DNA of 64,000 nucleotides from Eledone cirrhosa (taxonomy: Eukaryota): positions 29,450,001 through 29,514,000 of the forward strand of contig OZ024758.1 in assembly GCA_964016885.1 (NCBI GenBank), read 5' to 3'. Below, piece after piece: positions 29,597 to 29,996 of this stretch. The stretch's first letter is position 1. Every line of letters begins with the position of its first letter. The position numbers were made by a program, and so were the translations under genes. The notes under the pieces were generated by a model that ran no database searches, was not told the origin of the DNA, and saw only the letters and a list, made by a program, of their open reading frames with translations.

Positions 29597-29996
29597 ATGG
29601 AAAAGAATGAAACGAAATTTCATTTCTCACTCTTAGTATGGCTGATACTTAAATGTAAGTATGTATGTATACGTACATATATATATGAATACAGACGTAC
29701 AGTCGTATGTATATATATACATACATGCTCACGTATATATGTGTACGTATCAGTTTACCGAACATTTATTATAATGTTCGGTTTGTTTGTGTAAACAAAC
29801 AGCCCGAATTACGCCGTACTGTGTTCAAGCAACCATCGTCGCCCTTTTGATCATACTGACACAGGAACGATGTACTAGTTTCAAGCTTATTAGCTATCGT
29901 CAGCATCGTATACCTTTCTGCCAGATGATTGAACGTCTGAAAGTATATACGTATATACTTTCCTTATGCATATTAACGGCTGAGCAGCCGTTAATA
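29597..29996 (-). mobile_element. Diverged solo copy of the 468-bp hammerhead unit
   Basis: Alignable to 37490-37900; hammerhead at 29867-29909 (ACGATG-CTGACGA-T-AGCT(AATA)AGCT-T-GAAA-CTAG-TA-CATCGT); terminal fold-back TATTAACGGCTG-AG-CAGCCGTTAATA; (TA)n flanks. Confidence 0.85.

Follow-up and report, generated by a model that had tools for sequence, protein, structure and literature searches.

The window analyzed here, 64,000 nucleotides of Eledone cirrhosa contig OZ024758.1, holds at 29.6-30.0 kb a solo copy of a hammerhead-bearing repeat that differs at many positions from related tandem units at 37-39 kb. It raises the question of whether the ribozyme in so diverged a copy was kept by selection for self-cleavage. 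A first-pass annotation had concluded that it was, since the differences within the motif fall at tolerant sites, and had placed two source lineages under such selection.

Anatomy of the solo hammerhead

The solo copy (29598..29989, minus strand) is a 5'-truncated single arm of a retrozyme family, less than one unit long, with one hammerhead. It is flanked by (TA)n runs and terminates at the "long" 3' end of the family; its 5' truncation point lies about 80 bases upstream of the hammerhead, and there a short fold-back of its own 5' sequence (29990..29995) is followed by (TA)n. The type I motif (29866..29910, minus strand, as are all of its parts) has the same sequence as the consensus of its own subfamily. 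Helix I comprises six pairs, 29909-29904 with 29872-29867, with predicted pair probabilities of 0.6 to 1.0 and with covariation; its 5' strand (positions 2.6-2.1) occupies 29904..29909, with position 2.3 at 29906, and its 3' strand together with U1.7 occupies 29866..29872. The core C3-A9, CUGACGA (29897..29903, N7 at 29899), was read from the sequence. Helix II (29883..29896) consists of a U10.1·U11.1 mismatch, four Watson-Crick pairs, and an AAUA loop whose variable base is 29889. GAAA, the palindromic helix III ACUAGU, and the GUA triplet were assigned by sequence and folding to 29873..29882, and an extended helix I (29856..29925) closes the internal loop surrounding the motif in the predicted fold.

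The predicted cut site lies between 29873 and 29872. Folding prediction gave the helix III palindrome a pair probability of 0.0 in the monomer and a self-duplex energy of −4.8 kcal/mol, and helix III is predicted to pair only across two units, not inside a monomer. U1.7, the same in 69 of 69 aligned rows and kept in a sister family described below, likely takes part in contacts between loop I and loop II. The last A of loop II is present in 67 of the 69 rows, and a putative loop I-loop II tertiary contact would fall on these two bases.

The solo motif carries CUGANGA, GAAA, and UH in type I order, and its 6-base palindrome provides a helix III for dimer formation. The purine-pyrimidine pair at 10.1-11.1 is replaced by U·U in 64 rows and C·A in 5 of 69 (counted at 11.1), and the U·U mismatch, absent from the first-pass annotation, is common to solo and tandem copies. 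By analogy with a known active variant, this mismatch does not exclude the hammerhead class: U10.1·U11.1 supports cleavage (PMC3088659) and occurs in axolotl HHR_Amex2 as presented in PMC7229834. Rfam Hammerhead_HH9, a model that covers one amniote family, matched at 19.6 bits (E = 0.013), below its gathering threshold of 52, while the Rfam scan of the whole window yielded nothing but microsatellite-driven miRNA noise among the best 150 of 213 rows. A mismatch, U·U or A·A, likewise closes helix II in the hammerheads of autonomous Penelope-like elements (loci L195, L196, L200, and L205, downstream of a GIY-YIG ORF, and L182, L201, and L204); the mismatch therefore recurs in unrelated families of this genome.

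Comparison with the tandem units

The insertion at 37-39 kb consists of two opposed arms inside (TA)n, with one 3' end of each kind. Its left arm (37063..38192, minus strand) holds 2.4 units of 468 bp, with C3 at 37350 and 37818, and stops at the "short" 3' end; the right arm (38191..39031, plus strand) holds 1.8 units, with C3 at 38221 and 38687, and stops at the long one. The tandem units, a few hundred bases each, all bear a type I hammerhead and are joined head to tail with no ORF in or between them; unit length is 468 bp in the window and 420-424 bp in older types. One hammerhead (38680..38724, plus strand) has a private core change, G8 to A at 38692, and is an example of decay after insertion.

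Comparison on the minus strand confirmed the four annotated motif differences. The solo copy has C rather than U at N7 (29899), AAUA rather than AACA in loop II (third base, 29889), an A-U rather than a G·U pair at position 2.3 (29906), and U rather than A at position 2.7 (29910). Three of them lie inside the annotated ribozyme, 29867-29909; the fourth, which had been called the outermost stem I pair, is 29910/29866. Because U1.7, its 3' U, is invariant in all 69 rows while the 5' base varies, 29910/29866 is better taken as the margin of the internal loop than as a pair under selection.

The pair of copies by itself says little about constraint. Substitution density is nominally lower in the motif (4/45) than in the flanks (19/151), a difference that is not significant (Fisher P = 0.35); for the constrained motif positions alone, 1/35 changed (P = 0.075 against the flanks, solo versus tandem units). 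N7 is a freely variable hammerhead position, and the chance probability of all changes falling on tolerant sites is 0.001-0.03, with "tolerance" defined post hoc. None of the four motif changes is unique to the solo copy, whose nine private differences are all found outside the motif. The pairwise comparison alone does not prove selection, and the case that it makes is weak. The same data would suit chance combined with mutational bias in a young repeat, given the pairwise P value, the small number of substitutions, the post hoc naming of tolerance, and the preponderance of transitions (three of the four motif changes, with N7 in a CpG).

Copy number, subfamilies, and relative age

Copies were located genome-wide through sequence patterns. 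The motif pattern had 26,335 matches in the 3.0-Gb genome and a 22-base flank word had 19,267 exact matches, with 0 for the backward controls of either; the family is thus present at high, dispersed copy number, as monomers and multimers. The first 100 matches of the flank word all lie on contig C1 and reduce to 68 insertions, of which 67 span the motif. These 67 were picked blind to the ribozyme and, with the two window copies, make up the 69 rows. A further 29 copies, chosen by similarity to the solo copy, were added for subfamily sorting, and the tree was built with FastTree.

The copies fell into eight subfamilies of at least 3 members, with 6 copies unassigned, so that the two source lineages of the annotation give way to at least eight. 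Rare-variant load drops from 1.9% in the solo copy's subfamily to 0.4% in the 37-39 kb type, and because it falls along the subfamily ladder, the solo copy belongs to an older subfamily and the tandem units are the younger form. The solo copy's subfamily being about 4 times older, the motif changes, which had been written from tandem to solo states, probably ran in the opposite direction; this polarity is set by mutation load only, N7 and 2.3 being homoplastic. Rooting with the sister family was uninformative, as the young state matched it 14 times and the old state 12 times, and the same count ruled out that the young subfamily had borrowed sequence from the sister family. At two loci, L040 and L048, helix I pair 3 reads U·U, which may be a step between the A-U and U·G subfamilies.

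Inherited and private variants

Inherited variants avoid the motif. Among the eight subfamily consensuses, variable columns numbered 0/11 in the core, 2/24 in the helices, and 63/279 in the flanks (P = 0.011), and these inherited changes represent few events rather than independent copies. A raw-column test on the 67 insertions and two window copies gave 2/35 for the motif and 43/181 for the flanks (P = 0.009 at a threshold of 4 copies) and depends on the threshold, with P = 0.018 at 5 copies and P = 0.079 at 3. The motif positions that vary are N7, H17 (A or U), loop II base 3, 2.7, 10.1·11.1 (U·U or C·A), and helix I pair 3; the last is G·U in 31 of the 69 rows, A-U in 19, U·G in 12, unpaired in 5, and gapped in 2. 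An independent run (X2; contigs, 4,192 sequences) found motif variants at 5% or more at loop II base 3, N7, 2.3, and 2.7, and none in the core.

Private variants show no such pattern. They affect 27/2186 core and helix bases and 127/10251 flank bases, 1.24% in each (P = 1.0). Genome-wide, G12, which we take to be the general base, is changed in 387/26,722 matches (1.45%) and a flank G in 362/19,629 (1.84%, a figure inflated by one array that makes up 26 of the first 100 hits); on contig C1 alone the two rates are equal (P = 0.79). The private changes bear no excess of RNA-editing scars on the sense strand (14 A>G versus 8 T>C, P = 0.20). Since inherited variants avoid the motif while private variants reveal no protection, selection acted on templates, not on inserted copies, and the solo copy itself was not preserved by selection. 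Equal rates in motif and flanks across the family, which the annotation had named as the outcome that would speak against it, are thus found for private mutations and not for inherited ones; an equal-rates test would mislead unless the two are kept apart. As for chance and mutational bias, the laxest raw-column threshold and the CpG share of private C>T and G>A changes (23/59) fit that account, whereas the equal private rates oppose it: the motif mutates normally, and it is the inherited changes that avoid it.

Variants common to the units of one insertion were weakly depleted in the motif (1 versus 20 events, P = 0.12, motif-chosen loci removed). An earlier version of this test (2/1733 versus 46/7421, P = 0.005) was discarded, as recurrent alleles and motif-selected loci had inflated it; cleaned values were P = 0.12-0.24. 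At L232 (both arms), L233, and L234, a G12 change is common to two units of an insertion. Either a dead-core template was inserted or a unit was duplicated as DNA, two histories that leave indistinguishable traces.

Sister family and covariation

Patterns excluding this family's helix II recovered 5,335 and 4,354 further motifs (about 9,700); the first 100 of each match set are of one type. These sister units of 466-469 bp align to the retrozyme unit over its full length, with a flank identity of about 58%. Of the 22 helix I and II bases, 14 differ, and every pair is kept. Helix II is closed by a canonical G10.1-C11.1 pair and the triplet is GUU or GUC. The helix II of the solo copy's own family, if closed by G-C, has 0 exact matches. 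The sister patterns required core identity and not helix complementarity, so complementarity alone was counted; core identity (0/11 versus 116/276) was set aside as circular, because the search pattern had demanded it. Sister insertions at 5.738-5.752 Mb and 30.83-30.84 Mb of contig C1 (genome G000) have two opposed arms with up to about 30 near-identical units of 466-468 bp.

Pair counting on 56 sequences (41 distinct) found that 91% of cells pair and that 6/16 pairs change on both sides. Covariation was 0.243, compared with at most 0.093 for slid structures, and helices I and II are both backed by it; the number of covarying pairs did not exceed a shuffle control (296/500). Against chance and mutational bias stand the two-sided transversions (A-U to U·G) and a helix II that was wholly rewritten with its pairs kept. 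This compensation in the sister family already largely refutes that explanation, which we regard as highly improbable.

Constraint is not limited to the ribozyme. Of 86 predicted flank pairs, 67 are invariant, 7 changed on two sides, 9 changed on one side with the pair kept, and 3 are broken, in a structure predicted from the same eight consensuses on which the pairs were counted. Because the flank hairpins keep their pairs in this model, constraint appears to extend over much of the unit RNA, and the flanks are a conservative control. Selection might then have acted on the fold of the whole unit, for recognition by a Penelope protein or for circle stability, with the hammerhead as one arm and cleavage slow or dispensable. 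Besides the covarying flank helices, this proposal would accommodate the weaker helix II closure, U·U or C·A, of the most numerous family, the G12-changed units repeated within insertions, and Penelope insertion in vitro that, as described in PMC11167929, is undiminished by hammerhead mutants. It does not predict that 11 unpaired catalytic bases are fixed in 8/8 subfamilies while N7, H17, and loop II base 3 vary, a pattern that follows the tolerance of catalysis rather than helix stability, and we judge it distinctly unlikely.

Selection on the source lineages, as first annotated, thus finds support in the family data, not in the pair of copies. That self-cleavage was the selected property we infer from the sequence pattern.

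Probable mobilization by Penelope-type elements

The insertions themselves carry marks of Penelope-type mobility: partial tandems, an inverted 5'-truncated arm, a 3' tail, and a (TA)n target. Of 77 arm ends, 27 stop at the long site, 9 at the short site, 4 ran on, and 2 were other, while 35 were left unclassified because the exact landmark is mutated or overlaps a TA run. The short site lies mostly 52-57 bases upstream of the long one, and each runs into TA. PMC8557442 presents Penelope anatomy of this kind, and PMC11167929 attributes the Penelope tail to two internal reverse-transcription starts. Insertions that are tandem and two-armed, lie in (TA)n, and use two fixed 3' ends point to a Penelope-mobilized non-LTR retrozyme. 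The element has the sequence features of a metazoan non-LTR retrozyme and, by those features, would work like one.

Penelope-type ends and (TA)n targets would also be seen if the unit were the terminal repeat of an autonomous Penelope, with subfamilies that follow that element's lineage and a constraint that belongs there; homology between a retrozyme and a Penelope pLTR is described in Xenopus (10.64898/2026.07.22.740005). The head-to-tail junctions with no intervening ORF argue otherwise, as do Penelope protein hits in inconsistent positions near the unit (171 loci screened). The genome has 10,597 GIY-YIG candidates, of which 150 were scored; two ORFs tested had RT-like and GIY-YIG domains. 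In 0 of 40 GIY-YIG loci drawn from these candidates was the unit a terminal repeat, and we give this origin almost no credence.

The preferred reading, which we consider quite probable, treats the solo copy as an insertion, cut short at its 5' end, from an older subfamily. Selection on the RNA templates from which the subfamilies arose likely maintained its motif, since such templates would need self-cleavage to go on being copied by a Penelope-like retrotransposon. Tandem arrays would be transcribed by read-through, and dimeric hammerheads, proposed because helix III has no predicted pairing in the monomer, would cleave the transcripts into unit-length, possibly circular RNA. A Penelope RT/GIY-YIG protein would then reverse-transcribe the unit RNA into (TA)n. 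For continued copying, the templates founding each subfamily would need self-cleavage, probably as dimers, and the solo copy would be a dead end because it has a single hammerhead and less than one unit. Cleavage may be needed for founding lineages rather than for every insertion, given that Penelope hammerhead mutants insert normally in vitro in the account of PMC11167929, that 8/9 Xenopus retrozyme dimers are listed as uncleaved in vitro in 10.64898/2026.07.22.740005, and that G12-changed units are repeated.

A more far-reaching version, which we offer as speculation and think rather unlikely, would treat the genome as a time-ordered natural mutational scan. In the most successful family, U·U and C·A mismatches would have taken the place of the canonical G-C closure of helix II and tuned a dimer-only ribozyme down; dead-core units, which intact neighbors could excise since dimeric hammerheads cut each other's sites, would ride for one insertion round; and lineage-level selection would act on cleavage rate and circular fold. 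If true, this would make the fitness landscape of a genomic ribozyme accessible to measurement.

Several other repeats were seen along the way. Penelope-type minimal hammerheads (CUGAAGA, long helix II, 4-bp helix I) lie at 15540-15590 (plus strand) and 27235-27285 (minus strand) of the window, and the minimal CUGAAGA hammerhead repeat is also found inside GIY-YIG loci L181, L205, and L206; Penelope-linked minimal hammerheads reportedly cleave as dimers (work ascribed to Lünse, 2017). A fragment at 60836-61360 (minus strand) has 56% identity to a Penelope ORF bearing GIY-YIG. A short repeat of two fused halves (30016-30165, also 29141-29201 and 4988-5048) recurs next to (TA)n at over 20 of the fetched loci and close to Penelope ORFs, and likely represents the ends of another Penelope-type element with the same targets. 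At 12723-12874, an inverted pair of another abundant repeat holds hammerhead core words (C3 at 12805, plus strand, and 12792, minus strand), with a short helix II closed by U·U and no clear helix I, and may be a permuted hammerhead. A long inverted repeat with arms of about 65 bases (30318-30490) lies between TA runs and has almost no matches in the fetched loci. Disrupted ORFs of various non-LTR retrotransposons, recognized by eye in the translations, were found at 20817-24574 and 25901-26425 (minus strand) and at 5212-7215, 53400-60650, and 39600-39830 (plus strand), one with a restriction-like endonuclease motif.

Relation to known systems

Published work bears on the role of the hammerhead in Penelope-type mobility: cleavage is dispensable for insertion in the in vitro study of PMC11167929, and most Xenopus dimers are reported as uncleaved (10.64898/2026.07.22.740005). 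Here, telling inherited variants from private ones yields evidence from the genome that long-term propagation depends on the catalytic core and that copies, once inserted, decay neutrally. The family also offers matched natural variants for assay, with G-C, U·U, and C·A closures and GUA, GUU, and GUC triplets. Elements of this class, and covariation within their motifs, have already been described, and this is a clean example, not a new system; a literature search found no paper on this family or on an inherited-versus-private test in retrozymes, and supplementary tables of the preprint could bear on the novelty of the family.

The hammerheads of Penelope pseudo-LTRs, as presented by Cervera and de la Pena (2014, PMC4209133) and Frangieh (2024, PMC11167929), likewise have a short palindromic helix III and partial tandems, an inverted 5'-truncated copy, a 3' tail between two start sites, and AT-rich targets, and PMC4209133 describes their families as rich in compensatory changes. 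The element described here differs in having no ORF, helix lengths typical of canonical type I motifs (6 bp for helix I, 4-5 bp for helix II), a tail of about 52-57 nt rather than 30-40, and no matching autonomous partner in 40 loci. Axolotl HHR_Amex2 (PMC7229834) and the U10.1-U11.1 hammerheads of Perreault (2011, PMC3088659) have the same U·U at the base of helix II, and for them as for the present element dimers are expected to cleave better. The helix III of this family is shorter, a 6-base palindrome with 2 pairs around 2 bases; in one subfamily C·A stands in place of U·U, and the canonical G-C is found in the sister family. PMC6155905 reports a conserved loop-loop reverse Hoogsteen pair.

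The closest parallel is with metazoan non-LTR retrozymes as characterized by Cervera and de la Pena (2020, PMC7229834) and by Li, Clavereau and Pollet (2026, 10.64898/2026.07.22.740005). In those accounts, as here, the units are non-coding, run to a few hundred bases, occur in tandem or alone, and each carry a type I hammerhead; GC is low, high self-pairing is predicted, and thousands of copies share the genome with Penelope elements. The present element is set apart by units of 420-500 bp, two-armed inverted insertions, two fixed ends, and a dated subfamily ladder.
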